NCBI GenBank assembly: GCA_035941045.1
Contig: DASZEK010000198.1
Span: forward strand, 660 to 64,659
From: Pyrinomonadaceae bacterium
GTDB taxonomy: Bacteria > Acidobacteriota > Blastocatellia > Pyrinomonadales > Pyrinomonadaceae
Length of the DNA: 64,000 nt
Reading direction: 5' to 3'
The notes beneath the pieces are model-generated. The model worked only from the letters and a program-made list of their open reading frames with translations, was not told where the DNA came from and did no database searches. The position numbers and the translations under genes were made by a program. Below, one piece after another: positions 325 to 64,000 of this stretch (position 1 is its first letter; each line of letters begins with the position of its first letter).

Positions 325-3300
325 ATGAGAAAACAGCTAACCGGCGGACTGCGCAGGGCGCTCTTAGCCCTCGCCGTCTGCCTCAGCCTTTGCGGCCCCG
401 CCGCGGCGCAGGTCACGGAGACCGCCGCCCAGGTCAACGGGCAAGTCACGGACTCGGCCGGCGCCGTCGTCGCCGGGGCCTCGGTCGTCGTCACCAACGA
501 CGCCACGCGCGAGCAGCGCCGCGTCCAGACCAACGAAGAGGGTCTCTACGTCATCACCCCGCTCAACCCCGGCAACTACACGCTGACGGTCGAGCAGTCG
601 AACTTCAAGCGTTACGTCGAGACGAACGTCGTCCTCAACGCCAAGGACCGCCGCCTCCTCAACGTGGTCCTCGAAGCGGGCAACGTCGCCGAGACCGTCA
701 CCGTCACGAGCGAGACCAACGTCGTGCAGGACAGCCCGACGGGCCAGACGCTCATCTCGGGCCAGCAGGTCATCGAGCTCCCGCTCAACAACCGCGACTA
801 CCTGAAACTGACCGAACTGGTCCCCGGCGTCAGCTCCAGCCTCGACGACGAGACGACCTTCGGACTCACCAGCCGCGCCGACATCTCGATTAACGGCATG
901 CGCCGCAACGCCGTCAACTACCTCGTGGACGGCGTCACCAACACCGACCCCGGCTCGAACATCACGCTGCTCTCGACGCCCACGGTTGACTCCATCAAGG
1001 AGTTCAAGGTGCTCACGTCGAACTACACGGCCGAGATCGGGCGCTCGGGCGGCGGCGTCGTCACCGTCGTCACGCGCGGCGGCGGCAACGACTTCCACGG
1101 CTCGCTCTACGAGTTCTTCCGCAACGACTACTTCAACGCCAACACCTTCTTCAACAACCGCCAGCCCCGCCTCGCCAACGGGCAGGTCAACCCGAACTTC
1201 AAGACGCCCGTCCTGCGCTACAACAACTTCGGCGGCACCATCAGCGGCCCCGTCATCCTGCCGAAGTTCTGGGGCGACGGTAAGCGCTACTGGTCGGGCC
1301 GCGACAAGACCTTCTTCTTCTTCTCCGAGGAGGCGCGGCGCGTCAAGCGCGGCACGACGGCCGCCACGCGCACCGTCCCGACCGCGGCCGACCGCGCCGG
1401 CGACTTCGGCCCGCGCCTCGGCAACCTCGTCTGCCGCAACGCCGCCGGCACCGCGACCGCGACGGCGTCCGCGGCCGGCGTCTGCCCGACCGCCCAGCCC
1501 ATCATCGCCACCGCGACCGACACCCTTGGCCGCACCATCCAGGTCCGCGTCAACCAGATTTTCGTCACCGGCACCGACATCGCTTACGCCGACAACAAAC
1601 TCCCGTCGGGCGTCATCGACCCGCGCGCCGTCTCGCTCTACAACGCCTTCCCGCTGCCGAACTCGGGCACCAACTCCTTCGTCTTCAGCCCGGTCAGTCT
1701 CAACAACACGCGGCAGGAGACGGTCCGCATCGACCACAACTTCAACGACGACAACCGCTTCTTCGGCCGCTACACGCACGACCTCTCACAGACGCAGGAG
1801 TCGGCCGGCCTCTTCGGCGACGCCACCGTCAACCTGCCCGGCGTCTCCACGACCGACACGCGCGTCCCCGGCCACGTCCTCGCGCTCTCGCTCGCCAGCG
1901 TCTTCTCGCCGACGCTCGTCAACGAGGCGACCTACAACTACTCGGGCACGCTCATCGGCTCGCGGCCCACGGGGCGCGGCTTCCGCTCCGACTACCCCGG
2001 CGCCGACAAAATCCCCGAGCGGTTCCCCGAGAACAACGCGGGCGCCATCCCGACCATCAACATCTCCACCTTCGGCGCCGTCGCCTACGGCCATCAGGGC
2101 TTCCGAATCCTGACGCGCATCCACGCCATCCGTGATGTCGTCACCTGGACCAACGGCAACCACACCTTCAAGTTCGGCGGCGAGTTCTCGCACGAGCAGA
2201 AGGCCGAGAACGCCAACAACCTCTCGCAGGGCGGCTTCACCTTCTCCGGCAACCAGACCGCCGGCCCGACGGCGCTGGGCGGCACGACCCGCACCGGCCT
2301 CGGCGCCGCCTCCTTCCTCCTCGGCCTCGCCAACACCTACAACGAGGACGAGCGCGACGTGACCTTCGACTTCCGCTTCGGCCGCCGCGAGTTCTTCGCG
2401 CAGGACACGTGGAAGGTGCGGCCCAACCTGACGCTCGACTTCGGCGTGCGCTACCAGTACTTCACGCCCGTCCGCGACGTTGACAACGTCCTGACCAACT
2501 TCGACCCGACGCGCTACGTCCGCGCCAACGCGCCGACCTGCACGCCCGTCGCCTCCGGCCCGCTCACCTGCGCCACGCTCGTCTCCGGCACGGGCGACCC
2601 GCTGAACGGCATCGTCATCGCGGGCGTCAACTCGCCCAACGGCTCCTTCATCGCCCCGCGCGACACCAACAACTTCAGCCCCCGCGTCGGCCTCGCCTGG
2701 GACCCCTTCTCGAAGGGCAAGACCATCCTGCGCGCCGGCTACGGCTTCTACTTCGACCAGCCGCTCTCCGGCATCTTCGGCCAGAACGTGCAGGTCAACC
2801 CGCCCTTCAACCGCCGCCTCTCCTTCACGAGCACCGGCACGAACATCCTCACGCTCTCGAACCCGACGGGGACGACGCCCAACGCCATCGCCCCGCCCGC
2901 GCTACAGGGCACCGACCCGAACTTCCAACTGCCCGAGACGCAGCAGTGGTCCGTCGGCGTCCAGCACACGCTGTTCCGCAACGCCACGATTGACCTCTCT
3001 TACGTCGGCACGAAGGGCGACAACCTGATCCGCATCGTCGAGCTGAACCAGCCGGCGCCGAAGGCCGTCATCGACGCGGGCGGCACCTCGACCGTCAACG
3101 TCCTGAACGCCGCGCGCCCCTTCCGCGGCTACGGCTCGATCACCTACCGCGAGTCGAGCGGCCGTTCGCGCTACCACGGCATGCTCTCCTCGTTCATCTA
3201 CCGCTTCACGTCGGGCTCGTCCGTCACGCTCTCCTACACGTGGTCGAAGAACCTGACGAACGCCACCAACGACCGCGACACCGTGGACATCCCGCAGCTC

Positions 3301-3924
3301 TACTCGCTCAAGGACACCGAGTACGGCGTCGCCCGCAGCAACCGCGCGCACGTCTTCAGCGCCGGCTACGTCTACGAGCTGCCCTTCTTCCGCAAGAACG
3401 AGAGCGCGCTGCTGCGCCACGCCCTCGGCGGATGGCAGGTCTCCGGCATCACGCAGATTCAGTCGGGCCTCCCCATCGCGCGCGCCCTGAACATCTCGGC
3501 CACGCAGTTCGCCAACACGGCGACGAACAACGGCCTGCGCGGCAACCGCCCGAACCTCCTCAGCGACCCGAACGAGGGGCTCGCCGGCACGAACGACGCC
3601 GCCGGCCTCCCGTTCCTCTTCGACCCGACGGCCTTCGCGCTGCCGCCCGACGGCACGCTCGGCAACTCTCCGCGCGCCTTCGCCCGGCTGCCGACGCAGA
3701 ACCAGACGAACCTCTCGGCCATCAAGAACTGGTACTTCTCGAAGGACCGCGACGTGCGCCTCCAGTTCCGCGCCGAGGCTTTCAACGTCTTCAACCACAC
3801 GCAGTTCACCTCGGTGGGCACGGTCTTCGACCCGACGCTCGCGCTCACCGCCACGACCTTCGGCCGGCCGACCGCCGCGCGACTGCCGCGCGAGTTCCAG
3901 TTCGGCCTCAAGCTCTACTTCTAA
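325..3924 (+). CDS. TonB-dependent outer-membrane receptor with N-terminal carboxypeptidase-regulatory-like domain
   Basis: About 1200 aa. Signal peptide MRKQLTGGLRRALLALAVCLSLCGPAAAQ. CarboxypepD_reg-like segment GQVTDSAGAVVAGASVVVTNDATREQRRVQTNEEGLYVITPLNPGNYTLTVE. Long beta-rich body ending FGLKLYF, the aromatic terminus typical of OM barrels. ATG 325 is preferred over 286 because it begins the signal peptide. Confidence 0.85.
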   Translation: MRKQLTGGLRRALLALAVCLSLCGPAAAQVTETAAQVNGQVTDSAGAVVAGASVVVTNDATREQRRVQTNEEGLYVITPLNPGNYTLTVEQSNFKRYVETNVVLNAKDRRLLNVVLEAGNVAETVTVTSETNVVQDSPTGQTLISGQQVIELPLNNRDYLKLTELVPGVSSSLDDETTFGLTSRADISINGMRRNAVNYLVDGVTNTDPGSNITLLSTPTVDSIKEFKVLTSNYTAEIGRSGGGVVTVVTRGGGNDFHGSLYEFFRNDYFNANTFFNNRQPRLANGQVNPNFKTPVLRYNNFGGTISGPVILPKFWGDGKRYWSGRDKTFFFFSEEARRVKRGTTAATRTVPTAADRAGDFGPRLGNLVCRNAAGTATATASAAGVCPTAQPIIATATDTLGRTIQVRVNQIFVTGTDIAYADNKLPSGVIDPRAVSLYNAFPLPNSGTNSFVFSPVSLNNTRQETVRIDHNFNDDNRFFGRYTHDLSQTQESAGLFGDATVNLPGVSTTDTRVPGHVLALSLASVFSPTLVNEATYNYSGTLIGSRPTGRGFRSDYPGADKIPERFPENNAGAIPTINISTFGAVAYGHQGFRILTRIHAIRDVVTWTNGNHTFKFGGEFSHEQKAENANNLSQGGFTFSGNQTAGPTALGGTTRTGLGAASFLLGLANTYNEDERDVTFDFRFGRREFFAQDTWKVRPNLTLDFGVRYQYFTPVRDVDNVLTNFDPTRYVRANAPTCTPVASGPLTCATLVSGTGDPLNGIVIAGVNSPNGSFIAPRDTNNFSPRVGLAWDPFSKGKTILRAGYGFYFDQPLSGIFGQNVQVNPPFNRRLSFTSTGTNILTLSNPTGTTPNAIAPPALQGTDPNFQLPETQQWSVGVQHTLFRNATIDLSYVGTKGDNLIRIVELNQPAPKAVIDAGGTSTVNVLNAARPFRGYGSITYRESSGRSRYHGMLSSFIYRFTSGSSVTLSYTWSKNLTNATNDRDTVDIPQLYSLKDTEYGVARSNRAHVFSAGYVYELPFFRKNESALLRHALGGWQVSGITQIQSGLPIARALNISATQFANTATNNGLRGNRPNLLSDPNEGLAGTNDAAGLPFLFDPTAFALPPDGTLGNSPRAFARLPTQNQTNLSAIKNWYFSKDRDVRLQFRAEAFNVFNHTQFTSVGTVFDPTLALTATTFGRPTAARLPREFQFGLKLYF

Positions 3925-51453: not shown

Positions 51454-52515
51454 ATGTTTAAGAGAAACCTCGGCAGGAAGGGCCTCGTGGGCCTCGACAT
51501 CGGTTCGAGCTCGATCAAGGCCGTCGAGTTGCAGGGCAAGCCCGGCTCGCTCCAACTCGTCAACCTCGGCTTCGAGGGCCTTCAGCCCGACACGGTCGTG
51601 GACGGCCAGATCATGGAGCTGAACGACGTGTCGAACGTCATCTCCGGCCTCTTCGGCGCCCACCAGTTCAAGACCGACCGCGTGGCCGCCGGGGTCTCCG
51701 GCAGCTCCGTCATCGTCAAGAACATCATCGTGCCGCAGATGACGCGCGAGGAGTTGCAGGAGTCCATCGACTGGCACGCCGAGGAGCACATCCCGTTCGA
51801 GATTTCGGACGTGAGCCTCGACTATCAGGTCGTCGGCTCGGGCCACGACTCGCTGCACGTCCTGATGGCGGCCTGCAAGCGCGACTCCATCGCCAATCTT
51901 AAGCAGGCCATCCAGCTCGCCGGCAAGCACCCGACCGTCATCGACGTGGACGCCTTCGCCCTCCAGAACTGCTACGAGCTGAACTACCAGCCGCCCGACG
52001 AGCTGGTCGTGGCGCTCCTGAACGTCGGCGCCTCGACGATGAACATCAACATCGTGAAGGGCGTCCGCAGCGTCTTCACGCGCGACGTGTCGGTCGGCGG
52101 CAACCAGTACACGGCCCTCTTGCAGAAGGAGCTGGGGCTGACGCACGAGCAAGCCGAGGCCGTGAAGCGCGGCGGGCCTGCGCCCTCGCACGTCGAGGCC
52201 GTCGATTTGGAAGGCGTGCTGGAAACCGTCTCGGACATGCTCGCTTTGGAAATCTCGAAGACCTTCGACTTCTACCGCGCCACGGCCGAAGACTCGAACG
52301 CCGCCGTGCAGAAGATCATGATCTCGGGCGGCGGGTCGAAGCTCCGGGGGCTGACCGAGTTCCTCTCGGGCCGCTTCGAGATCCCGGTCGAGCGGCTCGA
52401 CCCCTTCCGCCGCATCAAGTTCGACGCGCGGCGCTTCGACCCCGACTACATGCGCGAAGTCGTGCCCGAGATGGCCGTCGCCGTGGGCCTCGCCCTGAGA
52501 GGAGTGGATGCTTAA
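51454..52515 (+). CDS. pilM: Type IV pilus assembly protein PilM (actin-like ATPase fold)
   Basis: 353 aa. N-terminus LVGLDIGSSSIKAVEL ... VIDVDAFALQN ... MISGGGSKLRGL, typical of PilM. Confidence 0.9.
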   Translation: MFKRNLGRKGLVGLDIGSSSIKAVELQGKPGSLQLVNLGFEGLQPDTVVDGQIMELNDVSNVISGLFGAHQFKTDRVAAGVSGSSVIVKNIIVPQMTREELQESIDWHAEEHIPFEISDVSLDYQVVGSGHDSLHVLMAACKRDSIANLKQAIQLAGKHPTVIDVDAFALQNCYELNYQPPDELVVALLNVGASTMNINIVKGVRSVFTRDVSVGGNQYTALLQKELGLTHEQAEAVKRGGPAPSHVEAVDLEGVLETVSDMLALEISKTFDFYRATAEDSNAAVQKIMISGGGSKLRGLTEFLSGRFEIPVERLDPFRRIKFDARRFDPDYMREVVPEMAVAVGLALRGVDA

Positions 52516-53220
52516 ATGATCAAGGTCAACCTACTGGACTCCGTCACCGACCGCGCGACGAGCGTCGCCGTCGTCGAGGAGAAGGTCTCGAACCCGCGGA
52601 CGCGGATGCTCGTCATGGCGGCGTCGGTCGCCTCGCTGATGGTGCTCGCCGTCGTCTTCGACTACGTCAGCGCCAACACGGCCAACGCGCGCGCCAAGGC
52701 CGAGCTTGAGCGGCAGCAGCAGATCGCCGCGCAGATGGCGGCCATCAACAAGGAGCAGGCCGACCTGGAGAAGAAGATCAAGGACATCCAGGTCCGCATC
52801 GACGCCATCAAGAAGCTCCGCTCTTCGCAGCAGGGCCCGGTCGCGCTGCTCTCCGAGCTTAACGAGCGGCTGCCGAAGGCCGACGAGTTCCGCCTGGAGT
52901 CCGTCGAGCAGAAGAACGGCGAGCTGATCATCGAGGGCAACTCGCCCAACGAGTACGCCGTCACGCAGTTCGGCCGCAGCCTCGAATTCTCCTCCGGCCT
53001 CTTCCAGAACGTGAGCCTTGAGACCGAGCGCAAGGAGCTGGAGATCAACGCGGCCGACTACGCCGCCGAAGGCCCGCTCGACCTGACCATTAAGCCGCAG
53101 ACGGTCCGCTTCAAGGTCAAGTGCAAGTACGTGCCGGGCGGGACGCAGCCCGCGCCGACAGCGACGGCCGCCGCCCCGGCCGCCCCCGCCGCCGCCGCGC
53201 CGCAGGTCGCGAGCCGCTAG
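52516..53220 (+). CDS. pilN: Type IV pilus assembly protein PilN
   Basis: 234 aa. Starts directly after the pilM stop (TAAATG). MIKVNLL N-terminus, a single TM helix, then a coiled coil and the PilN-type periplasmic domain. Ala/Pro-rich tail. Confidence 0.8.
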   Translation: MIKVNLLDSVTDRATSVAVVEEKVSNPRTRMLVMAASVASLMVLAVVFDYVSANTANARAKAELERQQQIAAQMAAINKEQADLEKKIKDIQVRIDAIKKLRSSQQGPVALLSELNERLPKADEFRLESVEQKNGELIIEGNSPNEYAVTQFGRSLEFSSGLFQNVSLETERKELEINAADYAAEGPLDLTIKPQTVRFKVKCKYVPGGTQPAPTATAAAPAAPAAAAPQVASR

Positions 53221-53248
53221 ACGACGCCTCGCAGAAGGGAAACGAACG

Positions 53249-53920
53249 ATGTTCAAACTCGAAGTATTGCCCGAGAAGCCCTGGTACTTCCAGGCCGCCG
53301 TCTTCGGCCTCATCGCCGCCGCCGTCTACTTCGGCTTCTACTACATGGTGACGAGCGGCACGCGCGCCGAGACCGCCGAGGTCGAGGAGAAGGTCGCCAA
53401 GCTCCAGCAGGACAACGCGCGCGCGCAGATAGCCTCGCAGCGCCTCAACGAGTTCAAGGCCAACTACGCGCAGGCCAAGGCCGACTACGAAGACCTGAAG
53501 GCGCTCCTCCCCGAGCAGCGCGAGCTGACGATGGTCCTCCAGAACGTGCAGGACCGCGCGCGGGGCCGCCTGACGCTGCACCGCTTCACGCCCAAGGACG
53601 AGGTCCAGCAGGACTTCTACACGGGCAAGCCCATCGAGCTCGAAGTCTCCGGCACCTATAACAACGTCGGCCAGTTCTTCCAGCAGTTGGCTTCCTACCA
53701 GCGCATCGTCTCGGTCACGGACTTCCGCATCACGCGCCTCCGCGAAGGGCGCGCGCAGGACAAGGCCGACGGCAAGACCATCGACGCGCAGTTCCTTTTG
53801 ACCGCCTACTACGCTTCGCCCGAGAAGATACAGGCCGCCGCCCCGGCACCCGCGCCGGCCGCCGCGCCGCCTGCCGCCGCAGCCAACGGCGCCCCCGCCC
53901 CGGCCCCTGCCGCCAAGTAG
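53249..53920 (+). CDS. pilO: Type IV pilus assembly protein PilO
   Basis: 223 aa. N-terminal TM helix WYFQAAVFGLIAAAVYFGFYYMV, a coiled coil, and a PilO-like domain (IELEVSGTYNNVGQFFQQLASYQRIVSVTDFRI). Confidence 0.75.
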   Translation: MFKLEVLPEKPWYFQAAVFGLIAAAVYFGFYYMVTSGTRAETAEVEEKVAKLQQDNARAQIASQRLNEFKANYAQAKADYEDLKALLPEQRELTMVLQNVQDRARGRLTLHRFTPKDEVQQDFYTGKPIELEVSGTYNNVGQFFQQLASYQRIVSVTDFRITRLREGRAQDKADGKTIDAQFLLTAYYASPEKIQAAAPAPAPAAAPPAAAANGAPAPAPAAK

Positions 53921-53980
53921 GGGGTAGAGAGGGCGTGCGCCCCCGACCAGAGCGTCTTTAACCGGAACAGGAAGAGAACG

Positions 53981-54712
53981 ATGAAAGACAGCACACCCAA
54001 CTTCCGACGCGCGGCGCAGGGCCTCGCGGCCTGCGTGCTCCTAGTTGGCGCCGCCGCGTCCGCCTTCGGGCAGACCGCCAACGCCACCTACCGCGGCGCG
54101 CCGCGCGACCCGTTCACGAAGTACAAGCCGAACCTCAAGACCCGGCTCATCAAGCCCGTCGCGAAGCCGGTCGAGGTGCCGCCCATCAAGGCGCGCATCG
54201 ACAACTACAAGGCGCAGAAGCAGGCGGCGATGAGCCTCCAGCAGCCGGCGCCGAAGCCGACGACGGCCCTGCTCCTCAGCGAGCTTCAGGTCATCGGCAT
54301 CTTCCGCACCCCGCGCGGCTACGCCGCGATGGTCGAGGCCACGCCCATCCACCTCTCCTACGTCGTCTACCCCGGCGAGCCCTTCTACGACGGGATGCTC
54401 GTCGCCATCGAAGAGACGCGCCTCGTCTTCCGCAGGCAGACGCGCTGGACGGACGGCCGGACGGAAGTCGCCGTCGAGACCAAGCAGCTCAGGCAGGCCA
54501 GCGTCTCCGACTCGATGGCCGCCACCCGCGAGCCCGAGGCCGCGCCCGCCAAGGGCTCATCGGAGGTCAACGCGTTCCTCGAAGTTCTGAAGGCCCTGGC
54601 CGCCGCCAACGCGCAGCAGCAGCAACAGCCGCAGCAGCCGGGCGGACAGGCCGCCCCGCAGCACGGCACCGGCGCGGGCGCCGGCGCCGGCAGCAACGCC
54701 AGCCGTCCCTGA
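53981..54712 (+). CDS. PilP-like pilus assembly protein
   Basis: 243 aa. Signal peptide. Central beta-sandwich-like segment LSELQVIGIFRTPRGYAAMVEA...YVVYPGEPFYDGMLVAIEETRLVF resembles the PilP core. Its position between pilO and pilQ fits. Gln/Ala-rich tail. Confidence 0.55.
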   Translation: MKDSTPNFRRAAQGLAACVLLVGAAASAFGQTANATYRGAPRDPFTKYKPNLKTRLIKPVAKPVEVPPIKARIDNYKAQKQAAMSLQQPAPKPTTALLLSELQVIGIFRTPRGYAAMVEATPIHLSYVVYPGEPFYDGMLVAIEETRLVFRRQTRWTDGRTEVAVETKQLRQASVSDSMAATREPEAAPAKGSSEVNAFLEVLKALAAANAQQQQQPQQPGGQAAPQHGTGAGAGAGSNASRP

Positions 54713-54958
54713 AACCCCCACCCCAGCCCGACCCCGCCCGTAGTAGCTCGCCTCCGCCGGCCACCCGGCCGGGCGCGCGAGAGAGAGGACGCCGCGCCGA
54801 CTTGAGAAGGCGGCGTCGTTGACAGCCGAGACCGTCGGGTCGTGTCCGCGTTGTGCGGCGCGCGCTTGAAGGGCGGTGCCTCCTCAAAGGGGGGCGCCCG
54901 AACGAGCGTTAGCGTGTGGCGGCCACCCCCGTCGTGCCTTGCTCAGAAGGAAGAGAAC

Positions 54959-57061
54959 ATGTCCCACATTAAAAACATCACCCGGCACATGAGGGGGGGC
55001 GCGCTCGTCCTCTCGCTCCTGTGCCTGCTCGGCGCCTCGTCGCCGGCAGCCCGCGGCGCGACGCCCGCCGGCCTGCCCGTCGCCAAGAGCGTGCGCGCGG
55101 CCACCAGCGGCGCTTCCACTCTCATCACCATCTCGGGGACGGCGCCGATGCCCTACAGCGTCCGCCGGCCCGAAGCCCGCCTGCTCGTCGTCGAGCTGCC
55201 GGGCGTTGACGCCACGCAACTCGCGCCCGCCTACGACATCGCCTCGCCGCTCGTCGCGGGCGTCGAGGTCCGCCGGACGCTGCGCGGCACGGAGCCCGTC
55301 GCCAGCCTCCAAATCGCCCTCCGCGCGCCCGTCCGCGAGCGTTCGCACCTCGCCGGCAACGAGCTGGTCCTGGAGCTCCAGCCCGAGACGGCCGCCTCGA
55401 CGCCGGCCGCCGCGCAGTCGCGCCCCACGCCGACCCCCACCCCGGACGCGCAAGGCCCTTCGCAGCCCCCCACGCAGGGGCAGCAGTACGGCCAGCCCGG
55501 CTTCATCGGCGAGCCCATCAACCTCAACGTCGTCAACGCCGACATCCGCGACATCCTCAACTACATCACCGAGCAGTACGGCGTGAACTTCGTCGTCGAT
55601 TCCTCGGTGCGCCAGGTGCCCGTCACCATCAACGTCACCGAGGTGCCCTGGAACTTCGCGCTCGACTCGCTGCTGAAGGCCAACCGCCTCGGCATCGAGG
55701 TCAACGGCAACATCCTCCGCATCGCCACGCTCGAAGTCCTGAAGGACGAGGCGAAGATTCGCGCCGAGGAGGCCGCCGCGCAGTCGCGGCTCCGCGAGGC
55801 GCAGCTTGAGAACACGCCCCTCGTCACCGAGTTCATCCGCCTCAACTACGCGCGCGCCTCCGGCTCGCTGGCCTCGGCCGCGGGCGGGTCCGACGCGTTC
55901 ACGGGCGGCGGCTCCGCGGGCGGCGGCTCGGGCGGCGGCTCCGGGATAATGCCCATCATCGCCCGCCGGCTCTCGCGCCGCGGCGGCATCGAGGTGGACG
56001 ACCGCAGCAACACGCTCATCGTCACGGACGTGCGCGAGAACATCGACGCCATCCGCCGCCTCGTCCAGCTCCTCGACCAGCCCGAGCCGCAGGTCGAAAT
56101 CGAGACGCGCATCGTCGTCGCCAGCCGCAACTTCAGCCGCGACCTCGGCGTCCAGCTCTCGGCCTCCGTCCTGAACCCGAGCCGCGGCACCTTCGGCTCC
56201 TTCGGGACGCAGAACGGCATCAACCTCACGAACGGCACCAACTCGCTGACCATCCCGGCGCCGTCCGGCTCGCTCGGCGCGGCCGGCCCGAACACGGTCA
56301 TCGGCCTGACGACCGGCATCTTCGGCACGGCGCAGATTTCGGCCCTCATCACGGCGGCCGAGGCCAAGGGCCAGGCCAAGGTCATCGCCACGCCGCGCGT
56401 CACGGCGCTCAACAACCGCTCCGCGCAGATCGAGTCGGGCTCGCAGATTCCCGTCGTCACGCCTCAGATCGGCGCGGGCGGCGGCTCCAGCCTCTTCACG
56501 ACGACCTTCGTCTCAGTGCCCCTGCGCCTCTCCGTCACGCCGCAGATTACGGACGCGGGCACGGTCATCATGCGCGTCACGATGGAGAACAACACCGTCA
56601 ACACCACGGTCAACTCGCTCGGCACGCCCGGCATCGACACCCAGCGCATGCAGACCGAGGTGCTCGTGCCCGACGGCGGCACGACGGTCGTCGGCGGCGT
56701 CATGACCGACCGCGAGACCGACGTTAATAACCGCACGCCCGGCCTCGCCAGCATCCCCGTCGTCGGCAACCTCTTCAAGCGTAAGCTCATCACGCGCAAC
56801 ACCGACGAGATACTCTTCTTCATCACGCCGCGCATCTACCGCCCCGACTACCAGGGCCGCCGCATCGAGACCGACCCGGCCACCGGGACGCGCTCCGTCA
56901 CCATCCCGCAGCCGGTCCCGCTCGGCAACCCCGGCACCAACACGCCCACCCCGAGCATGCCGCAGCAACAGCCGCAGGTGCCCGCCAACAACGCCGCGCC
57001 CGCGACGACCGTCCCCGCCGGCACCGACGCGACGCCGGCCGCGCCCACCTCGCGCCCGTAA
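54959..57061 (+). CDS. pilQ: Type IV pilus secretin PilQ (AMIN domain + secretin-N repeats + secretin core)
   Basis: ATG 54959 preceded by GAAGGAAGAG. Signal peptide. AMIN-like segment STLITISGTAPMPYSVRRPEARLLVVELPGV. STN/N0-like PINLNVVNADIRDILNYITEQYGVNFVVD. Secretin core GIPVVGNLFKRKLITRNTDEILFFITPRI. Confidence 0.85.
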   Translation: MSHIKNITRHMRGGALVLSLLCLLGASSPAARGATPAGLPVAKSVRAATSGASTLITISGTAPMPYSVRRPEARLLVVELPGVDATQLAPAYDIASPLVAGVEVRRTLRGTEPVASLQIALRAPVRERSHLAGNELVLELQPETAASTPAAAQSRPTPTPTPDAQGPSQPPTQGQQYGQPGFIGEPINLNVVNADIRDILNYITEQYGVNFVVDSSVRQVPVTINVTEVPWNFALDSLLKANRLGIEVNGNILRIATLEVLKDEAKIRAEEAAAQSRLREAQLENTPLVTEFIRLNYARASGSLASAAGGSDAFTGGGSAGGGSGGGSGIMPIIARRLSRRGGIEVDDRSNTLIVTDVRENIDAIRRLVQLLDQPEPQVEIETRIVVASRNFSRDLGVQLSASVLNPSRGTFGSFGTQNGINLTNGTNSLTIPAPSGSLGAAGPNTVIGLTTGIFGTAQISALITAAEAKGQAKVIATPRVTALNNRSAQIESGSQIPVVTPQIGAGGGSSLFTTTFVSVPLRLSVTPQITDAGTVIMRVTMENNTVNTTVNSLGTPGIDTQRMQTEVLVPDGGTTVVGGVMTDRETDVNNRTPGLASIPVVGNLFKRKLITRNTDEILFFITPRIYRPDYQGRRIETDPATGTRSVTIPQPVPLGNPGTNTPTPSMPQQQPQVPANNAAPATTVPAGTDATPAAPTSRP

Positions 57062-57075
57062 AGGAGAGAGTAGGA

Positions 57076-57441
57076 ATGTTCAAGCAAGCACTCGCCGAGA
57101 TAGTCGAGCGCACCGAGGGGGCCACGGGCGCGCTCATCATGGGCATGGACGGCATCGCCGTCGAGCGGTTCTTCCTGCCCGAGGGCAGCGACGCGAACAT
57201 GGATGTGGCCGCCGCCGAAGTGACCTCGCTCGTCCGCAGCGCCCTGCGCGCCGGGGGCAACACCGGCCTCGGCCCGCTGCAAGAGATGTTCGTCAGCTTC
57301 GAGCACGTCCGCATCCTCGCGCGGATGTTCTCGCCCGAATACTTCGTCGTCCTGACGCTGAAGTCGGACTCCAACCTCGGCCGCGGCCGCTTCGAGCTGC
57401 GCAAGGCCGAGCTCAAGCTCGCGCGCGAATTCGCCGTCTGA
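57076..57441 (+). CDS. Roadblock/LC7 domain protein (MglB-like fold)
   Basis: 121 aa. AAGGAG-containing RBS 14 nt after the pilQ stop. ALAEIVERTEGATGALIMGMDGIAVERF ... MFVSFEHVRILARMFSPEYFVVLTL matches the Roadblock/LC7 pattern. Confidence 0.8.
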   Translation: MFKQALAEIVERTEGATGALIMGMDGIAVERFFLPEGSDANMDVAAAEVTSLVRSALRAGGNTGLGPLQEMFVSFEHVRILARMFSPEYFVVLTLKSDSNLGRGRFELRKAELKLAREFAV

Positions 57442-57512: not shown

Positions 57513-58287
57513 AGCAGGCGGGGAGTTTGACGAAAGGCATGCCTCTCATGATGACGCGCTGGCGGCGCTGTACGCGGCGGAGGTTCTTTTGCGGGTTGAA
57601 GACGTTTAGGGGGCCGGGGACCATCGCGGAGAGGAAGGCGGCCTCGCGCGGGGTGAGGTCGGCGGCCGACTTGTTGAAGTAGGTCCGGGCCGCGGCCTCG
57701 GCGCCGTAGACGCCGTCGCCCCACTCGATGACGTTGAGGTAGATTTCCAGTATCCGGCACTTGGGGAGCGTGCGTTCGAGGAAGTAGGTGTAGACGGCCT
57801 CGCGGGCCTTGCGGGCGAAGGAGCGTTCGGAGGAGAGCCAGAGGTTCTTGGCGAGCTGTTGGGAGATGGTCGAGCCGCCGCGCTTGAACTTGCTGAGGTC
57901 GGGTATCCAGTCGGAGGGGTCGTTGTCGCCCTCCTCCTTGGCCTCCTTCTCGGCGACCTTCTGCCCCTCCTCCCAGGCGCGCTGGATGGCCTGATAGTCG
58001 AAGCCGTTGTGCGAGGCGAAGTTGGTGTCCTCGCCCGCGAGGATGGCGCGCTGGAGGTGCGGCGAAATCCTTGAGAGCGGCACCCACTGTTGGACGCGGC
58101 GCGGCTCGCGCCCCTCGTCGCGCGCCTCCTTCAAGCGCGTCTCGATCATGCTCGTCGTCTCGGGGTCCTTCGTCTTCAACTGCGTGAAGCGCGGGAAGGT
58201 CACGACCTCGTAGACTATCCAGAGCGTGAAGAGGGCGAGGACGCCGAGCGCCGCGTACTTGATTGCTTTCCAGATGACTCTCCACAT
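57511..58287 (-). CDS. mtgA: Monofunctional biosynthetic peptidoglycan glycosyltransferase (GT51)
   Basis: N-terminal TM helix. GT51 motifs AILAGEDTNFASHNGFD, RGGSTISQQLAKNLWL and RKAREAVYTYFLE. ATG 58287 was chosen; TTG 58323 is an alternative start. Confidence 0.85.
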   Translation of the reverse strand: MWRVIWKAIKYAALGVLALFTLWIVYEVVTFPRFTQLKTKDPETTSMIETRLKEARDEGREPRRVQQWVPLSRISPHLQRAILAGEDTNFASHNGFDYQAIQRAWEEGQKVAEKEAKEEGDNDPSDWIPDLSKFKRGGSTISQQLAKNLWLSSERSFARKAREAVYTYFLERTLPKCRILEIYLNVIEWGDGVYGAEAAARTYFNKSAADLTPREAAFLSAMVPGPLNVFNPQKNLRRVQRRQRVIMRGMPFVKLPAC

Positions 58288-58326
58288 GCGGGACAAGTTA
58301 TAAGCCGCGCGCCCAAAGTTCAAGCC

Positions 58327-59229
58327 TCAGGCGGGCTCGAAGACGGCCTTCGCGGCGCGGACCGTGTTGCAGTGAATCTCGACGGTGTCGGCGATGTCTT
58401 TGGCGTAGCCGCCCGACATGACGGTGGCGACGGGCACGCCGCGCTCGCGGCACGCCTTTAAGACCGCCTCGTCGCGCGCGCGCAGGCCCGGAATCGAGAG
58501 GCCGAGGCGCCCGAGCTTGTCGCCCGCGTAAGGGTCGGCGCCGCCGAGGTAGAAGACGAGGTCGGGCCGGTGGTCGAAGACGGCGGGGAGGTGGCGGGCG
58601 AGCGTCTCAAGGTATTCGTCGTCGCCGGTCGCGTCGCGCAACTCCACGTCGAGCGAGGAGCGCGCCTTGAAGAGCGGGTAGTTCTTGGCGCCGTGCATGG
58701 AGAAGGTGAAGACGGCGGGGTCGCCTTCAAAAATCGTGGCCGTGCCGTTGCCCTGATGAACGTCGAGGTCGACGACGGCGGCGCGCTCGACGGCGCGGTC
58801 GCGCAGGAGGACGCGGGCGGCGACGGCCACGTCGTTGAGGACGCAGAAGCCCTCGCCGCGGTCGGCGAAGGCGTGGTGAGTGCCGCCCGCGAGGTTCGAG
58901 GCGACGCCGCTTGAGAGCGCCGCCCGCGCCGCGTTAATCGTCCCCGACGTGGCGAGGAAGGAGCGGCGCACGAGCGCCTTCGACCACGGCAGGCCGAGCC
59001 GCCGCAGCTCCCTCGTCGTCAAAGCCCCGGCGCGGAGCCGCGTCACGTAATCCTCCGTGTGGACGAGCAGCACGTCGTCAATCGCCGCCGGCTGCGGCTC
59101 GACGACCTCGCGCGGCGAGAGCGTCCCCTCGCGCAAGAGGCGGTCGCGCACCAGCTCGAACTTTTTTATCGGAAAGACGTGCCCCTCGCCGATGTCAGCG
59201 TAGTAACGCGGGCTGTAGAAGACAAGCAT
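58327..59229 (-). CDS. Histone deacetylase (HDAC) superfamily amidohydrolase
   Basis: 300 aa. Catalytic/Zn motifs LAGGTHHAF, VVDLDVHQGNGT and YLGGADPYAGDKLG, typical of bacterial HDAC/AcuC-like enzymes. Confidence 0.85.
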   Translation of the reverse strand: MLVFYSPRYYADIGEGHVFPIKKFELVRDRLLREGTLSPREVVEPQPAAIDDVLLVHTEDYVTRLRAGALTTRELRRLGLPWSKALVRRSFLATSGTINAARAALSSGVASNLAGGTHHAFADRGEGFCVLNDVAVAARVLLRDRAVERAAVVDLDVHQGNGTATIFEGDPAVFTFSMHGAKNYPLFKARSSLDVELRDATGDDEYLETLARHLPAVFDHRPDLVFYLGGADPYAGDKLGRLGLSIPGLRARDEAVLKACRERGVPVATVMSGGYAKDIADTVEIHCNTVRAAKAVFEPA

Positions 59230-59282
59230 AAAGGCACTAGACGGCAGTCGCCTGACTACTGTCTACCGCCTTCGGCCTTCAG

Positions 59283-61334
59283 TCAAGCCTTCTCGACGGC
59301 CTGCCGCCGGGCCTTCATGCCCTCCAGGACGAGGGTGAACTTGTCGTTGAAGTGTTTCTCGGAAAGATACTCCGGCGCGGGCACCTCGGGGGGGCCCTGG
59401 AGGATGACGGGCAAAATCTCGGGCAGGCCGTCGCCCTCCTTCTTCATGTGGTCGAGCGCGTGCAGCACCTCCTTCCTCACGTACTCCGACTCGTACGCCG
59501 CCTTCGACCAGAAGAGGAGGAGGATGTGGCTCTCGTCTATGTGCTTGTAGATGCCCTTCTCCCAACGCTCGCCCGGCTTGAGCGAGAGCACGTCCTCGAA
59601 ACAGTTGAACTTGAAGAGGTCCAAGAGCCGGACGCACTTGGTGACCTCTTCGCAGTCCTCGGAGGCGTAGGAGACGAAGACGTTCCTGTAGCGGAAGAAG
59701 GGGTGCGCCTCCAACTCGCCCGCCACGGCCGAGATGACGAGGTCGAAGGTGATGCGGCCGAGCAGCATCCCGTCGCAGAGGACGCGGAGCGTGCCGAAAA
59801 TGTTCGTCCCCTCCTTGCACGTCTCGGGCACGTCAACGATGAACTCGACCTCCTTGACCTTGCCCTTCCACTTGAAGGTCTCCTCCGCGGGCGCGCGCAC
59901 CGACAGGCCGGGCATCTCCAGTTGGAAGGTCAGCCGCTGGCCCTGCATGACCTTCTCTTCCAACTCCTCCGAGCCGCGCAGGACGGCCGCCTTGCCCCGC
60001 TGCTTCACTTTGTCGGCCAGCAGGTCGGTCTGGCCTTCGAGGTGCGCATAGGCCAGCACCATGAAGGAGGAGCCGGGCATGGCGTGCGGCGGGGCGTAGA
60101 CGGTGCACTGTACGTCGTCGCCCTCTTCGGCCGGGGCCGCGGCGGCGTGCGGGGGGGCTTGCGGCACGGGCGCGGGCAGCGGCACGGGCGGCGGGGCGGG
60201 CGTCTCGCCGCCCGGCGCCGGCTCGCCGCGGGCGCCCTTGACGTGCTCGTAAGCGGCGAACGTCGCGGCGCTGAGTAAGGCGAGCAGGAGGCCGATGAGG
60301 ACGTATTTCAAGGTCAGACTGAGCAGGGACACGCCCGCGACTTGCACGGTGCTCGGGGTCGTGGCGACGACGGGCGGCGGGGGAGTCGTCACGGGCTCGG
60401 GCGTGGGCGTGGGCGACGGTTCGGGAGAGGGGGTGGGCGTCGCGGCGGCGATGAGGACCGTGTCGTCCTTGGGGGTCGGCGTCGGCGTCGGGGTGGGAGT
60501 GGGCGTCGGCGTCGGGGTAGGCGTCGGGGCCGCAAGGATTTTCGTCACGCAGGACAGGGTGCAGCGGGGGCCGTAGCCGCGCGCCTCGAAGGTCGCGTGG
60601 ATGGTCCGGCCGGCGAGGCCGCTCGTGTCAACCTCGGCCGAAGTCGTGTCGGCGCCGGTGATGAAGCGGCCCGCCGAGACGTTCCACGTGAAGGTGGGCG
60701 AGGCGCCGGGCGTGCCGCCTTCGACCGTGGCGCCGAGCGGGGCGGGCTGGCCTTCCGTCACCTCGTCGCGGCAGCAGAGGGAGATGGCGGGGCAGTAGAC
60801 GCGGCGCGGCTCGGCGGGGCAGGCGCGCACGGCGACCTCGGCCGTCCGCGCGGCGAGCGCGGCGCCCTCGGGGCTCCTCAGCGTCACGGTGGCCCTGTAG
60901 GCTCCGGGCGCGGCCCCCGACAAATCCCAAACGACTTCGCCGCCCCCGCCGCCGATGCTCCCGCCGCTCGCCGCCCACGCGTAACGGAAGGGCTCGCCGC
61001 CCGGCGCGAAGCCCGTCGCCAGCAGTCGCACCCGCGCCGAGCTGTTAGGGCCGGAGCAGTTCGTGACGGCGGTCGCGCTGGCCGCGAGCCCGACCATCGG
61101 GCTTTCGGCGCGCGCCAGCTTCCGGCCCGCGAAGGGCGAGCCTAGCTGCTCGAAGAACTGGCTCGGCCGTTCGGGCGTCGGGCCGGGCGCGGCGCGGCGC
61201 GGCCTCACCGGGGGTGACTGCCTCGCGGCGTCCGGGGGCGCGGATTGTGCGCGGGGAGTCGCGTGCGCGGCGCAGACGAGGAGGCACGCGGCGGCCAGCA
61301 GGCGCGAGAAGGTTTCGACGGTAACGTGTTTCAT
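59283..61334 (-). CDS. Single-pass membrane protein: extracytoplasmic Ig/PKD-like repeats - PT-rich linker - TM helix - cytoplasmic beta-sandwich-like domain - C-terminal TIR domain
   Basis: 683 aa. GAGG lies 7 nt upstream of the ATG. Signal peptide MKHVTVETFSRLLAAACLLVCAAHA. Two Cys-framed Ig-like modules. (PT)n linker. TM helix LTLKYVLIGLLLALLSAATFAAY. TIR signature NVFVSYASEDCEEV ... ILLLFWSKAAYESEYVRKEV (the SxYVxxE glutamate position corresponds to the catalytic Glu of NADase-type TIRs). Confidence 0.8.
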   Translation of the reverse strand: MKHVTVETFSRLLAAACLLVCAAHATPRAQSAPPDAARQSPPVRPRRAAPGPTPERPSQFFEQLGSPFAGRKLARAESPMVGLAASATAVTNCSGPNSSARVRLLATGFAPGGEPFRYAWAASGGSIGGGGGEVVWDLSGAAPGAYRATVTLRSPEGAALAARTAEVAVRACPAEPRRVYCPAISLCCRDEVTEGQPAPLGATVEGGTPGASPTFTWNVSAGRFITGADTTSAEVDTSGLAGRTIHATFEARGYGPRCTLSCVTKILAAPTPTPTPTPTPTPTPTPTPKDDTVLIAAATPTPSPEPSPTPTPEPVTTPPPPVVATTPSTVQVAGVSLLSLTLKYVLIGLLLALLSAATFAAYEHVKGARGEPAPGGETPAPPPVPLPAPVPQAPPHAAAAPAEEGDDVQCTVYAPPHAMPGSSFMVLAYAHLEGQTDLLADKVKQRGKAAVLRGSEELEEKVMQGQRLTFQLEMPGLSVRAPAEETFKWKGKVKEVEFIVDVPETCKEGTNIFGTLRVLCDGMLLGRITFDLVISAVAGELEAHPFFRYRNVFVSYASEDCEEVTKCVRLLDLFKFNCFEDVLSLKPGERWEKGIYKHIDESHILLLFWSKAAYESEYVRKEVLHALDHMKKEGDGLPEILPVILQGPPEVPAPEYLSEKHFNDKFTLVLEGMKARRQAVEKA

Positions 61335-61456
61335 GAGGACACCTCGCGAGGAATTGATTAGTGCGACGTTCCCTCGGGCAGGACGATGAGGCGTCTGTGC
61401 GGACGGGCGGATTCTAGTTCAAGTGCGGGCGGCGGTAAAGAAGTTTCTGGCGGCGT

Positions 61457-62287
61457 CTAGAACTGTATCAGGCTGCCTTCGCGCTTGGCGCGGCGCACCG
61501 AGCGGGCGAAGACCCAGAGGGAGAAGGGGAGGAGGATGGCGAGGAAGGCGAGCAGCGTTAAGAGCGGCCTCTGCACGTCGGCGAAGCCCTGACCTTGAAT
61601 GAGCACGCGGCGGATGCCGTCGATGCCGTAGGTCGTCGGGAAAAAGGCGGAGACGGTAGTGAAGGCGGAGCCGCCGGCCTTGGCGAGAAGCTGGACGGGG
61701 AAGAAGACGCCGGAGAAGAGCGCCGAGCCGGTGCCGATGATGACGCCGAAGGGGTCGCCGCGCTTGAAGACCATCGCGAAGCTCGCCGACAGTATCCCGA
61801 CCGAGGCGAGCACGAGCGTCGTCAGCAGCAGGAAGAGGAGCGCGAGCAGGAAACTCCCGCGGTAGGTGACGCCGAAGAGCGCCCAGCCGAAGAAGAGGTA
61901 GAGGAACGAGTGGAAGGTGGCCTGCACGAAGTCCCACGCCGAGCTTGAGACGATGAGGGTGGGCACGCTGATGGGCGTCATCAGCACGCCCTCCAGGGTC
62001 CCCTGCGCCTGCTCGGAGCGGATGGCGGTGGCGAGGCTGGAGAAGCCGACCATGAAGTAGTTGAGGAAGGGCAGCGCGGTAATCCACGCGAGGAAGGGGT
62101 CGCGCCACTCGGCGTAGGGCGTGTCGAAGCCGTTGGCGAAAATCTGCGAGATGAAGTAGAGCGTCATCGTCACGAAGAGGATGCTCATGATGCGCATGAA
62201 GAACTCCAGCCGGTAGCTGACGGCGAGCTGGAAGTCGCGCACGACGAAGGCGCGGACGCGCCCGATGAGCAACAGCACCCTTCCCAT
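61457..62287 (-). CDS. ABC-2 type transporter permease
   Basis: About 276 aa with 6 predicted TM helices. The ATG overlaps the stop of the upstream ATPase gene (TGATG). Confidence 0.75.
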   Translation of the reverse strand: MGRVLLLIGRVRAFVVRDFQLAVSYRLEFFMRIMSILFVTMTLYFISQIFANGFDTPYAEWRDPFLAWITALPFLNYFMVGFSSLATAIRSEQAQGTLEGVLMTPISVPTLIVSSSAWDFVQATFHSFLYLFFGWALFGVTYRGSFLLALLFLLLTTLVLASVGILSASFAMVFKRGDPFGVIIGTGSALFSGVFFPVQLLAKAGGSAFTTVSAFFPTTYGIDGIRRVLIQGQGFADVQRPLLTLLAFLAILLPFSLWVFARSVRRAKREGSLIQF

Positions 62288-63309
62288 CAACCGTCTCCCC
62301 CCTCGCCCCCTTCGCGCTCGAAGCTCTCGATAACGTCGAGCAGCGTCGCGCGCTCCGACTCGACCGCGACGACGCGCGGGCCGGTCCCGACCAGTGCCCG
62401 CAGCGCGCGGTCCACCAAATCGTCGCCGACCTCGCGCGTGAAGGCGACGACGACGTTCTCGCCCTGCGCTCGCGTCTCGGCGCCGGGCACGACTCCGTCG
62501 AGTAAAGAAGCTGCCTGCTCTTTCGTGGCGTCCGCGACCGTGACGCGCACCCTCTCCTCCTGCCGGCTCGTCGAGCGCAGATGCGCGGGCGTGTCCACGG
62601 CCCTGATGCGCCCGCGGCTGATGACGGCGACGCGGTCGCAGAGCTCTTCGACTTCGGCGAGGTTGTGCGAGGTCAGGAGGATGGTGGCGGGCGGCGTGCC
62701 GCGCGCGAGCGAGCCGATGGTCTCGCGCATCCGGGCGGCGGCGAGCGGGTCGAGCGAGCGCGTCGGCTCGTCGAGCAGGAGGACAGGCGGCGAGTTGAGC
62801 AGAGAGCGCGCGACGGCCATCCGCTGCTTGTTGCCGGTCGAAAGCTCGCCGAAGCGGCGGCGTCGAAGCTCGCCGAGTTCCAGCAGTTCTAAAAGCTCGC
62901 CGATGCGCCGCCGCGTGAGCGCGCCGTCCATGCCGTAGAGGCGCGCGAAGAAGGTTAAGTTCTGTTCGACGGTGAGTCGCCAGTAGAAGCTGCGCTCCTC
63001 GGCCGTCGCCAGTCCCACCTGAGCGCGGACGCGCTCCTCGTCGCGGACGCTGTCGAAGCCGCGCACGCCGACCGAGCCGGAGGTGGGCTGGACGAGCGTG
63101 GCGATAATCTTGGTGAGCGTCGTCTTGCCCGCGCCGTTGCGGCCGATGAGGCCGAAGACTTCGCCCTCGCCGACGCTGATGGAGACGCCTCGCAGGGCCT
63201 CGACCGCGGGCCGCGTCTTCATGCGCATGACGCGCCGGAAGCCGGCCAGCGGGGGCGGGTAGGTCTTCGAGAGGTCTTCGATGGAGATGGCGGCGGGGGC
63301 GTCGGTCAT
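62287..63309 (-). CDS. ABC transporter ATP-binding protein
   Basis: Starts MTDAPAAISIEDLSKTY at ATG 63309. Walker A GRNGAGKTT, signature LSTGNKQRM and Walker B LLLDEPT. About 100-aa C-terminal extension. The upstream Arg-rich 135 codons of the ORF overlap the oppC-like gene and were rejected. Confidence 0.85.
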   Translation of the reverse strand: MTDAPAAISIEDLSKTYPPPLAGFRRVMRMKTRPAVEALRGVSISVGEGEVFGLIGRNGAGKTTLTKIIATLVQPTSGSVGVRGFDSVRDEERVRAQVGLATAEERSFYWRLTVEQNLTFFARLYGMDGALTRRRIGELLELLELGELRRRRFGELSTGNKQRMAVARSLLNSPPVLLLDEPTRSLDPLAAARMRETIGSLARGTPPATILLTSHNLAEVEELCDRVAVISRGRIRAVDTPAHLRSTSRQEERVRVTVADATKEQAASLLDGVVPGAETRAQGENVVVAFTREVGDDLVDRALRALVGTGPRVVAVESERATLLDVIESFEREGGEGGDG

Positions 63310-64000
63310 CGTCTGCGCTGGCGCGGGTCGAGGTACTCGCGCAGGCCGTCGCCGAGGAAGTTGAAGGCGAGCACGGTGAGGGCGATGGCCGCGCCGGGCA
63401 CGAGCATGGCGTGAGGGGCCAGTTGCAGCGTCGTCAGGTCGCGCGCCTCTTCGAGCATCACGCCCCACGAGGGCGCGGGCGGCGGCACGCCCAGGCCGAG
63501 GAACGAGAGCGACGCCTCGGAGAGTACGGCGCCCGCCATGCCGAGGCTCGCCTGCACGATGAGGGGCTGCACGGCGTTCGGCAGGATGTGAACGAACAGG
63601 ATGCGCCAGTCGCGCGCGCCCAGCGCGCGGGCCGCCTGCACGAAGTCGTACTCCCTGACTTTCAAGACCTGCCCGCGCATGACGCGCGCGTAGCCGACCC
63701 AGCCGATGACGCACAGCGCCAGAATCAGCTTGTTAATCCCGGCGCCGAGGAAGGCGACCATCGCGATGGCGAGCAGCAGGCCGGGGAAGGCGAGGAAGAC
63801 GTTGAAGAGGTAGCCCGAGACGATGCGGTCAACCCAGCCGCCGTAGAAGGCGGCGAGCGCCCCGATGGCCGTCCCTATCACCGCCGAGACGGCGACCACC
63901 ACCAGCCCCACGCGCAGCGAGATGCGCGCCCCGTAGACGACGCGCGAGAACACGTCGCGGCCCGTCGCGTCGGTCCCGAGCCAGTGCTCGGCCGAAGGCG
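63306..64000 (-). CDS. Oligopeptide/dipeptide ABC transporter permease (OppC/DppC-like), N-terminus outside the window
   Basis: The frame stays open to the window edge. Sequence ...GTDATGRDVFSRVVYGARISL ... ALGARDWRILFVHILPNAVQPLIV ... LGLGVPPPAPSWG is the typical BPD-transporter inner-membrane component pattern. The stop overlaps the next ATG (ATGA). Confidence 0.8.
   Translation of the reverse strand, partial: PSAEHWLGTDATGRDVFSRVVYGARISLRVGLVVVAVSAVIGTAIGALAAFYGGWVDRIVSGYLFNVFLAFPGLLLAIAMVAFLGAGINKLILALCVIGWVGYARVMRGQVLKVREYDFVQAARALGARDWRILFVHILPNAVQPLIVQASLGMAGAVLSEASLSFLGLGVPPPAPSWGVMLEEARDLTTLQLAPHAMLVPGAAIALTVLAFNFLGDGLREYLDPRQRRR

Follow-up and report, generated by a model that had tools for sequence, protein, structure and literature searches.

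A receptor-like membrane TIR protein with an unclassified β-sandwich domain at a fixed genomic position in Pyrinomonadaceae

The gene and its domains

The window analysed here is a 64-kb stretch (64,000 nucleotides) of contig DASZEK010000198.1, which comes from a Pyrinomonadaceae-like acidobacterium, a member of a free-living soil group of the Acidobacteriota. We are concerned with one open reading frame (ORF) on its minus strand, at 59283-61334, which starts with ATG and encodes a receptor-like membrane TIR protein of 683 amino acids plus stop. All the parts of the protein described below are on this strand. From the N-terminus it consists of a signal-peptide-like segment, a Pro/Arg-rich segment ending in a strongly conserved motif, two immunoglobulin (Ig)/PKD-like modules, a Pro/Thr-rich stalk, a single predicted transmembrane (TM) helix, a Pro/Ala-rich spacer, a β-sandwich that we call the mid domain, and a C-terminal TIR domain. 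A preliminary description, made from the sequence letters, had listed two Cys-framed Ig/PKD-like modules, a PT/Pro-rich linker, a single TM helix, a Pro-rich cytoplasmic spacer, a β-sandwich, and a TIR domain retaining the Glu in ESEYVRKE. All of these elements are present in the ORF, and the sole correction is that the PKD hidden Markov model (HMM) falls below threshold on the protein itself. A word-indexed search found about 15 relatives (P0001 to P0015), every one of which contains TIR_2; the databases name them merely "TIR domain-containing protein".

The TIR domain (residues 547-683; 59286-59696) matches Pfam TIR_2 (PF13676) at residues 552-662, in agreement with the earlier assignment; the score is 61.3 bits (E = 1.7e-16) where the curated cutoff is 28. 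In the AlphaFold2 model of residues 396-683, the TIR part alternates strand and helix in a flavodoxin-like manner, with a predicted local distance difference test score (pLDDT) of 72-87, and Foldseek matches it to the TIR domains of SPARTA, Hydra TRR-2 and TRAM. The nearest solved structures by sequence are the bacterial TIR-TPR protein 9m0n (profile E = 2.9e-6), the plant L6 TIR, the TIR domains of TLR15 and TLR2, and the CRISPR-associated Cat1. The candidate catalytic residue is E622 (codon at 59469-59471), the last residue of Y-V-R-K-E, which is equivalent to the W-x-x-x-E motif; it aligns with the Glu of that motif, at the helix αC position, in 9m0n, 3h16, L6 and TLR15/TLR2. The preliminary description had pointed to this Glu, and 184 of 186 relatives have Glu there. 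S555, D581, G588, W609 and S610 are likewise nearly invariant among about 186 relatives. The TIR_2 match, the alignment and near-invariance of E622, and the conservation of S555, D581, G588 and W609 argue for an active enzyme of the type that cleaves nicotinamide adenine dinucleotide (NAD+). Bacterial TIR domains that retain the catalytic Glu are reportedly NADases where tested (Essuman et al. 2018, cited in PMC8195603).

The mid domain and the mid-TIR family

The mid domain (residues 406-540; 59715-60119) is paired with the TIR domain. Its AlphaFold2 model has a pLDDT of about 90 and contains nine strands of at least three residues and one helix, which bears out the β-sandwich suggested earlier for this region; the fold is Ig-like. 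H431, W489, C410, G526 and F530 are nearly invariant. An exhaustive search with residues 401-542, clustered at 50% identity, gave 1,136 clusters at E ≤ 1e-3, of which 328 remain at the stricter E ≤ 1e-10, and a TIR domain directly follows the mid domain in 154 of the 161 sequences inspected. A Pfam scan of 38 diverse members at E up to 10 found no family, and the sole match of the mid-domain profile in the PDB was a weak one, to the N-terminal β-sandwich of a GH123 glycosidase (E = 0.008). It is concluded that mid plus TIR is a widespread two-domain cassette that lacks a name, and that the window's protein is a membrane-receptor-like form of this large family and not an isolated case.

The best Foldseek matches of the mid domain at low root mean square deviation are 3g5b (3.4 Å over 138 columns), 7crw_B and 7crv_B (about 4.3 Å, TM-score TMt 0.55-0.62) and 6m3q (4.2 Å). 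The fold thus resembles the UPA/ZU5 sandwiches of UNC5b, ankyrin-B and the NLRP1 FIIND, although generic Ig-like folds score alike. Homology to ZU5/UPA was considered and set aside, as there is no Pfam or PDB sequence match and the resemblance is at the level of fold only. In NLRP1, the UPA domain immediately precedes an oligomerising death-fold domain, and the β-sandwich in front of TIR would be a positional parallel to this arrangement.

About half of the top cassette matches are membrane proteins with one or two TM segments and Ig-like ectodomains; CarboxypepD_reg is found in 20 of 53 of these, and PKD, Big_1, SdrD_B and SpaA also occur. The other half have no upstream TM segment and are classed as soluble, carrying N-terminal Pkinase, FHA or WD40 domains. 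The cassette protein at locus L016 has a CHAT domain, and soluble cassette paralogues adjoin nSTAND1/NACHT-WD40 genes at loci L005 and L023. Kaur, Burroughs and Aravind (PMC7159879, PMC8195603) describe conflict systems in which company of this kind (kinase, FHA, WD40, CHAT, STAND and caspase) is typical.

Three observations concern members of this family or their domains. At L005 (4567-12288), the membrane-type protein P0015 is immediately followed by two proteins with N-terminal TIR domains, the first of which also contains DUF4062, and these flank an nSTAND1-WD40 NTPase; L005 is a multi-TIR conflict locus. A cassette protein of 510 amino acids, WP_015211574.1, is encoded on plasmid pMIC7113.04 (L031; NC_019761.1, 6290-14795) of the cultured cyanobacterium Allocoleopsis franciscana PCC 7113, next to a Uma2 endonuclease, a TPR protein and two giant caspase-family genes, and offers a possible experimental handle on the mid-TIR cassette. 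In the window itself, a plus-strand gene at 286-3924 encodes an outer-membrane protein of 1,212 amino acids with CarboxypepD_reg and an outer-membrane β-barrel, the former being the same domain type that recurs in the cassette ectodomains.

The N-terminal half and membrane topology

The first 25 residues (61260-61334) resemble a signal peptide, with K2 and R11, the hydrophobic stretch LLAAACLLVCAA, and AHA at positions 23-25, and a cleavage site is probably present here. Most membrane-type homologues have a hydrophobic N-terminal segment at the equivalent position. A lipoprotein signal was ruled out by eye, since C17 and C21 are without a canonical lipobox. The Pro/Arg-rich segment that follows (residues 26-79; 61098-61259) ends in the motif PSQFFEQLGSPFAGRKLARAESP (residues 56-79; 61098-61170). 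This motif, just N-terminal to the first Ig module, is the best-conserved stretch of the protein: over the 30 residues that include it (alignment columns 61-90) the identity to P0001 is 97%, and P0002-P0004 have the motif in recognisable form.

Module 1 (residues 80-175; 60810-61097) contains Cys93 and Cys172, and module 2 (residues 176-267; 60534-60809) contains Cys181, 187, 188, 258 and 262. Pfam PKD (PF00801) gives only 11.8-15.7 bits on the TIR protein, below its cutoff of 23.5. Residues 113-242 are, however, 38% identical (E = 2e-15) to the tandem PKD region of P0016, an OmpA-family envelope protein on which the same model scores 41 bits, above threshold. AlphaFold2 predicts two eight-stranded β modules for residues 75-270, with a mean pLDDT of 92.7, and Foldseek matches these to tandem Ig-like domains of JAM-A, RPTP-sigma (Ig1-2), NCAM2, SorCS2, intimin, invasin and S-layer proteins. 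The ectodomain is hence homologous to genuine PKD domains, with a predicted Ig-like fold, and the two Cys-framed modules of the preliminary description stand in spite of the sub-threshold Pfam score.

Of the 64 residues of the stalk (residues 268-331; 60342-60533), 23 are Pro and 19 are Thr, and the homologues have PT- or PS-rich stalks at the same position. If extended, the stalk could place the Ig pair far from the inner membrane. Beyond the membrane helix comes the spacer (residues 364-405; 60120-60245), where Pro accounts for 13 of the 42 residues and Ala for 10, and where the pLDDT falls below 50 at the end. These compositions are as expected for the linker and spacer proposed earlier.

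Only two segments exceed a Kyte-Doolittle hydropathy of 1.6 over 19 residues, namely residues 4-22, in the signal-like N-terminus, and residues 332-363 (60246-60341), where the value reaches 2.16. The latter is taken to be the single TM helix. Lys and Arg are absent from the 30 residues on its N-terminal side, and K366 and R369 follow on its C-terminal side; in P0012, P0013 and P0015 the helix is directly followed by poly-basic runs (for example RRRKR and RRRRRR). Seven Cys, in columns conserved among the homologues, lie on the N-side. TIR enzymes act on NAD+, which is found in the cytoplasm. The signal-like N-terminus, the N-side Cys, the charges around the helix, the OmpA-type ectodomain and the location of the substrate all agree, and so point to a single-pass protein with its N-terminus out and its TIR domain in, which is the order that the preliminary description had put forward.

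Divergence at a fixed genomic position

The order of genes at the locus is OppC, an ABC ATPase and ABC-2 permease pair, the TIR gene, a histone deacetylase (HDAC)-like gene, an mtgA-like transglycosylase, Robl/LC7 and pilQPONM, where the ABC pair and the HDAC-like gene are not always present. Homologues of the TIR gene fill the same slot in at least 10 other contigs of Pyrinomonadaceae/Blastocatellia type. The genome scan for related loci used a tighter alignment and is biased to close relatives.

Comparison of the window with eight syntenic loci gives 61-93% identity for the flanking genes and only 27-45% for the TIR protein. PilM is 87-88% identical, Robl 80-84%, HDAC 76-83%, transglycosylase 73-79% and PilQ 66-71%; for PilN, PilO and PilP, counting only alignments of nearly full length, the figure is 61-71%. 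A neighbour-joining tree built from the cytoplasmic modules does not recover the slot occupants as a monophyletic group: the window gene and two others from the slot fall among paralogues encoded elsewhere in genomes. Divergence in situ of a single orthologue is for this reason unsupported. The TIR gene is hypervariable and mosaic at a fixed slot of the core genome.

The individual domains do not follow one trend. In the closest pair (the window's protein and P0001), the whole gene has a synonymous divergence (dS) of 0.38 and a ratio of nonsynonymous to synonymous divergence (dN/dS) of 0.54. By domain, dN/dS is 0.19 for Ig module 1, 0.38 for module 2, 0.48 for TIR and 0.75 for the mid domain, and the mid domain is 52% identical against 86-88% for the Ig modules. 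P0008 and P0011 (L003/L004 and a 3.4-kb contig from ENA) are 79% identical in the ectodomain and 38% in TIR, which indicates that the cytoplasmic cassette is exchanged between alleles. Six other close pairs show the reverse, the ectodomain or N-terminal part diverging faster than mid plus TIR. A diversifying ectodomain as a uniform rule was accordingly dropped. The domain-wise data do not decide between sensing outside and sensing inside.

Neighbouring genes

The preliminary description had raised the idea that the TIR gene co-occurs with the HDAC and ABC-2 genes. This did not hold: HDAC is missing at L002 and L006, and the ABC pair is missing at L003, L004, L012, L013 and L025. Unlike the TIR gene, both are well conserved (72-85% identity) and of housekeeping character, and they were rejected as functional partners. 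Paralogues outside the slot have no recurrent neighbour. The TIR protein is therefore regarded as stand-alone, with no obligate partner gene.

PADLOC found no coherent system within the window, where the remaining genes are housekeeping; its matches to "mad3", "AriA" and "IetA" reflect generic ATPase similarity. A defence-island context was excluded by this survey of the window. Searches of the INPHARED phages and IMG/VR gave no phage or viral copies.

Comparison with known TIR systems

Applied to the TIR protein, PADLOC and NCBIfam give matches that are weak and confined to the TIR domain (TIR-NLR, ThsB, SAVED_TIR and retron-TIR), and the protein consequently falls outside every named system. 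This is in line with the distinction that the preliminary description had drawn from Thoeris, TIR-STING, TIR-SAVED and TIR-APAZ. For Thoeris, ThsB_TIR scores 17.8 bits, below its cutoff of 21.2, PADLOC ThsB matches with E = 3e-4 over TIR only, and there is no ThsA-like neighbour. For CBASS, there is no STING or SAVED domain, PADLOC SAVED_TIR matches with E = 1e-3 over TIR only, and no cyclase is found in the window. The likeness to SPARTA TIR-APAZ is in the TIR (25% identity by Foldseek, the match to 8qlp being limited to about 138 TIR columns), and APAZ and a nearby prokaryotic Argonaute are missing. What the protein has in common with the effectors of Thoeris, CBASS, SPARTA and Pycsar/Pucsar is the TIR as an NAD+-consuming or signal-making module; the partner domains and genes of those systems are missing here.

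The nearest solved TIR, that of the 824-residue TIR-TPR/TIR-STAND protein 9m0n (TIR-NLR in PADLOC), has the motif ESEWVKKE where the window's protein has ESEYVRKE. In 9m0n the TIR domain is N-terminal, whereas here it is C-terminal, behind a membrane anchor, and there is no NTPase or TPR. No STAND NTPase is found in the TIR protein or in the window; STAND genes stand only beside the soluble paralogues at L005 and L023.

Also among the closest known systems are the single-protein effectors of the TIR-V/TIR-IX type in E. coli (PMC11350192). With these the window's protein shares the catalytic Glu, the lack of a partner gene, an N-terminal region outside the TIR that presumably serves as the sensor, and a presumed abortive outcome based on NAD+. 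The E. coli proteins are cytoplasmic, and the window's protein adds a signal peptide, periplasmic Ig-like domains, a TM helix, a mid domain and a position in the core genome, as far as these can be predicted. The same work establishes single-protein TIR defence in E. coli experimentally, with cytoplasmic phage proteins sensed by the non-TIR domain, and indicates that membrane features of the TLR kind seem to be missing in bacterial TIR systems (PMC11350192). The preliminary description was aware of no characterised bacterial protein with the present layout, and we found none in the searchable literature.

The predicted layout is formally that of IL-1R and TLR, in which one TM helix joins an extracellular sensor (made of Ig-like domains in IL-1R) to a TIR in the cytoplasm. 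In these receptors, induced proximity of the TIR domains is the accepted mechanism of activation. The window's protein differs in having a bacterial TIR_2 with a catalytic Glu, an additional β-sandwich between membrane and TIR, and a long PT stalk; the receptors act by recruiting adaptors, whereas its own output is likely to be NAD+ cleavage. Metazoan receptor TIR domains have RDxxPG in Box 2 and FW in Box 3 (PMC7075850). The BB-loop of the window's protein reads SLKPGERW, with only the PG in common, it has no FW in Box 3, its best relatives by sequence are bacterial TIRs, and there are no adaptor genes. The likeness is best read as convergent, direct descent being unsupported.

Discussion

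The reading that we prefer, tentatively and at slightly less than an even chance, is that the protein is a stand-alone, membrane-tethered conflict or immunity effector which consumes NAD+ through its TIR domain and is switched on by clustering. A conflict effector is preferred to a housekeeping enzyme because of the catalytic-type TIR, the absence of a partner, the divergence at a fixed locus, the mosaicism, and the relatives linked to STAND, caspase and kinase proteins. As far as is known, all TIR enzymes studied to date require oligomerisation for activity, and a TIR that is flexibly tethered to the membrane would therefore be naturally controlled by clustering.

The following sequence of events is envisaged. 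After cleavage of the signal peptide, the two Ig/PKD-like domains, each framed by disulfides, would lie in the periplasm on their stalk of about 64 residues, while the single inner-membrane helix and the flexible Pro/Ala spacer would hold the mid-TIR cassette in the cytoplasm. At rest the tethered TIR domains would be scattered in the membrane and inactive. A multivalent cue would then gather several molecules, most likely through the periplasmic Ig pair and alternatively through the cytoplasmic β-sandwich, and the TIR domains would oligomerise. Cleavage of NAD+ would follow, leading either to its depletion or to a signal derived from ADP-ribose, and the arrest or death of the cell would be the response to phage or to competing cells.

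Several of our own observations weigh against this reading. In the closest pair, constraint is strongest on the Ig modules, which is a poor fit to a simple diversifying sensor ectodomain, and dN/dS is below 1 throughout, so that the data cannot tell positive selection from relaxed constraint. The topology is built on hydropathy, charge and Cys patterns, and the geometry between domains in the model is uncertain (predicted template modelling score, pTM, 0.49). Residue 618 is Tyr in the window's protein where the family mostly has the Trp of W-x-x-x-E (157 of 186). Finally, a housekeeping neighbourhood, with no defence island and no phage copies, is atypical for defence genes.

Where the trigger acts is the main point on which explanations differ. 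We think that it may act from outside. In its full form this would make the protein a true prokaryotic outside-in TIR receptor, in which a multivalent periplasmic ligand on the Ig pair clusters the protein and activates the TIR NADase by way of the β-sandwich; we regard this as a serious possibility, if on the doubtful side, and within it the ligand might be a phage structure crossing the envelope, the surface of a competitor, or envelope debris. The main rival, which we judge somewhat unlikely, is that sensing is done inside, by the cytoplasmic β-sandwich (for example of a phage protein that arrives or assembles at the inner membrane), with the Ig pair, stalk and helix serving only to position the protein in the envelope or near the pili. 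Such a role would suit the mid domain as the fastest-evolving folded part of the closest pair. It would also suit the soluble proteins without an ectodomain, which are about as common as the membrane ones, so that the cassette can function without an outside sensor, and it has a precedent in the detection of cytoplasmic phage proteins by the E. coli systems (PMC11350192). The six other close pairs, in which the N-terminal part diverges faster, tell the other way. Moreover, the core of the mid domain is strongly conserved (H431, W489, G526, F530) and recognisable across the 1,136 clusters, a pattern that suits a structural or regulatory companion of TIR better than a variable antigen sensor, and the elaborate and variable ectodomains of the family (PKD, CarboxypepD_reg, Big_1, SdrD_B) are hard to see as plain anchors.

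The fixed slot in at least 10 genomes, beside pilMNOPQ, an MglB-like Robl/LC7 and a peptidoglycan transglycosylase and away from any defence island, would fit a receptor with no immune role. Its Ig domains would make homotypic or surface contacts, as in kin recognition, aggregation, or sensing linked to the pilus or cell wall, and its TIR would give a regulatory NAD-derived signal or contact-dependent discrimination of self from non-self. The top fold matches of the ectodomain are to adhesion molecules and adhesins (JAM-A, NCAM2, intimin, invasin), and hypervariability is also a feature of allorecognition loci. We nevertheless consider this quite unlikely, as there is no conserved receiver for a downstream signal and relatives of the cassette accompany STAND NTPases, caspases and CHAT; the paralogues elsewhere have unrelated neighbours, so a link to pilus or cell wall is not family-wide. 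That the TIR is a catalytically silent scaffold, an adaptor recruiting other TIR proteins as in animal TLR signalling, is improbable: several TIR genes do occur together at some loci, such as L005, and Y618 takes the place of the usual Trp near the catalytic Glu, but that Glu and other residues of the pocket region are nearly invariant, tested bacterial TIRs that keep it are said to be NADases, and the window holds no TIR partner. An export signal together with a TIR domain might also recall secreted, host-directed virulence factors of the TcpB/TcpC/TirS type. This is scarcely credible for a protein whose internal TM helix would keep the TIR in the cytoplasm, whose architecture is unlike that of the Tcp proteins, and whose family numbers more than a thousand clusters in environmental metagenomes, in a free-living soil group.

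Bacterial TIR NADase effectors are known, and the protein would work as they do; what appears to be new here is the membrane receptor-like layout and the previously unnamed accessory domain. The current view of bacterial TIR immunity is one of cytoplasmic sensing. If the membrane-tethered effector that we prefer were to sense at the envelope, this family would add envelope-level sensing to that view and would be the first bacterial counterpart of transmembrane TIR signalling in the style of IL-1R and TLR, as part of a large repertoire of hypervariable receptors in soil Acidobacteriota. It would be a directly testable bacterial analogue of the IL-1R/TLR architecture. A β-sandwich for which Pfam has no model accompanies TIR in more than a thousand clusters of proteins. 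It may serve TIR enzymes in general, as a regulator or as a module for their assembly. A hypervariable mosaic gene at one position of the core genome, in an abundant and little-studied soil phylum, also provides an entry to conflict between Acidobacteriota and phages or between cells.

Other features of the window

In the 122-bp gap 5' of the TIR ORF there is a match to the sigma-70 consensus, TTTACC-17-TAGAAT (61411-61439, minus strand). It is the sole such match in the 3.4 kb from 58200 to 61600, where shuffled sequences lead one to expect 0.1, and as a consensus match it makes it possible that the TIR gene has its own promoter. On the plus strand, 51454-57441 holds a complete pilM-pilN-pilO-pilP-pilQ set followed by the MglB-like Robl/LC7 gene, kept in order and sequence in related genomes.

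The ORF of the ABC ATPase (62287-63714, minus strand) begins with about 136 additional, Arg-rich residues, which overlap the OppC-like gene (63306-63953, minus strand). Its true start is probably near Met137 (about nucleotide 63306), since Pfam ABC_tran begins at residue 174. Between 42000 and 48000 the GC content is 0.60-0.63, against about 0.68 elsewhere in the window, and this segment could be foreign or otherwise atypical.

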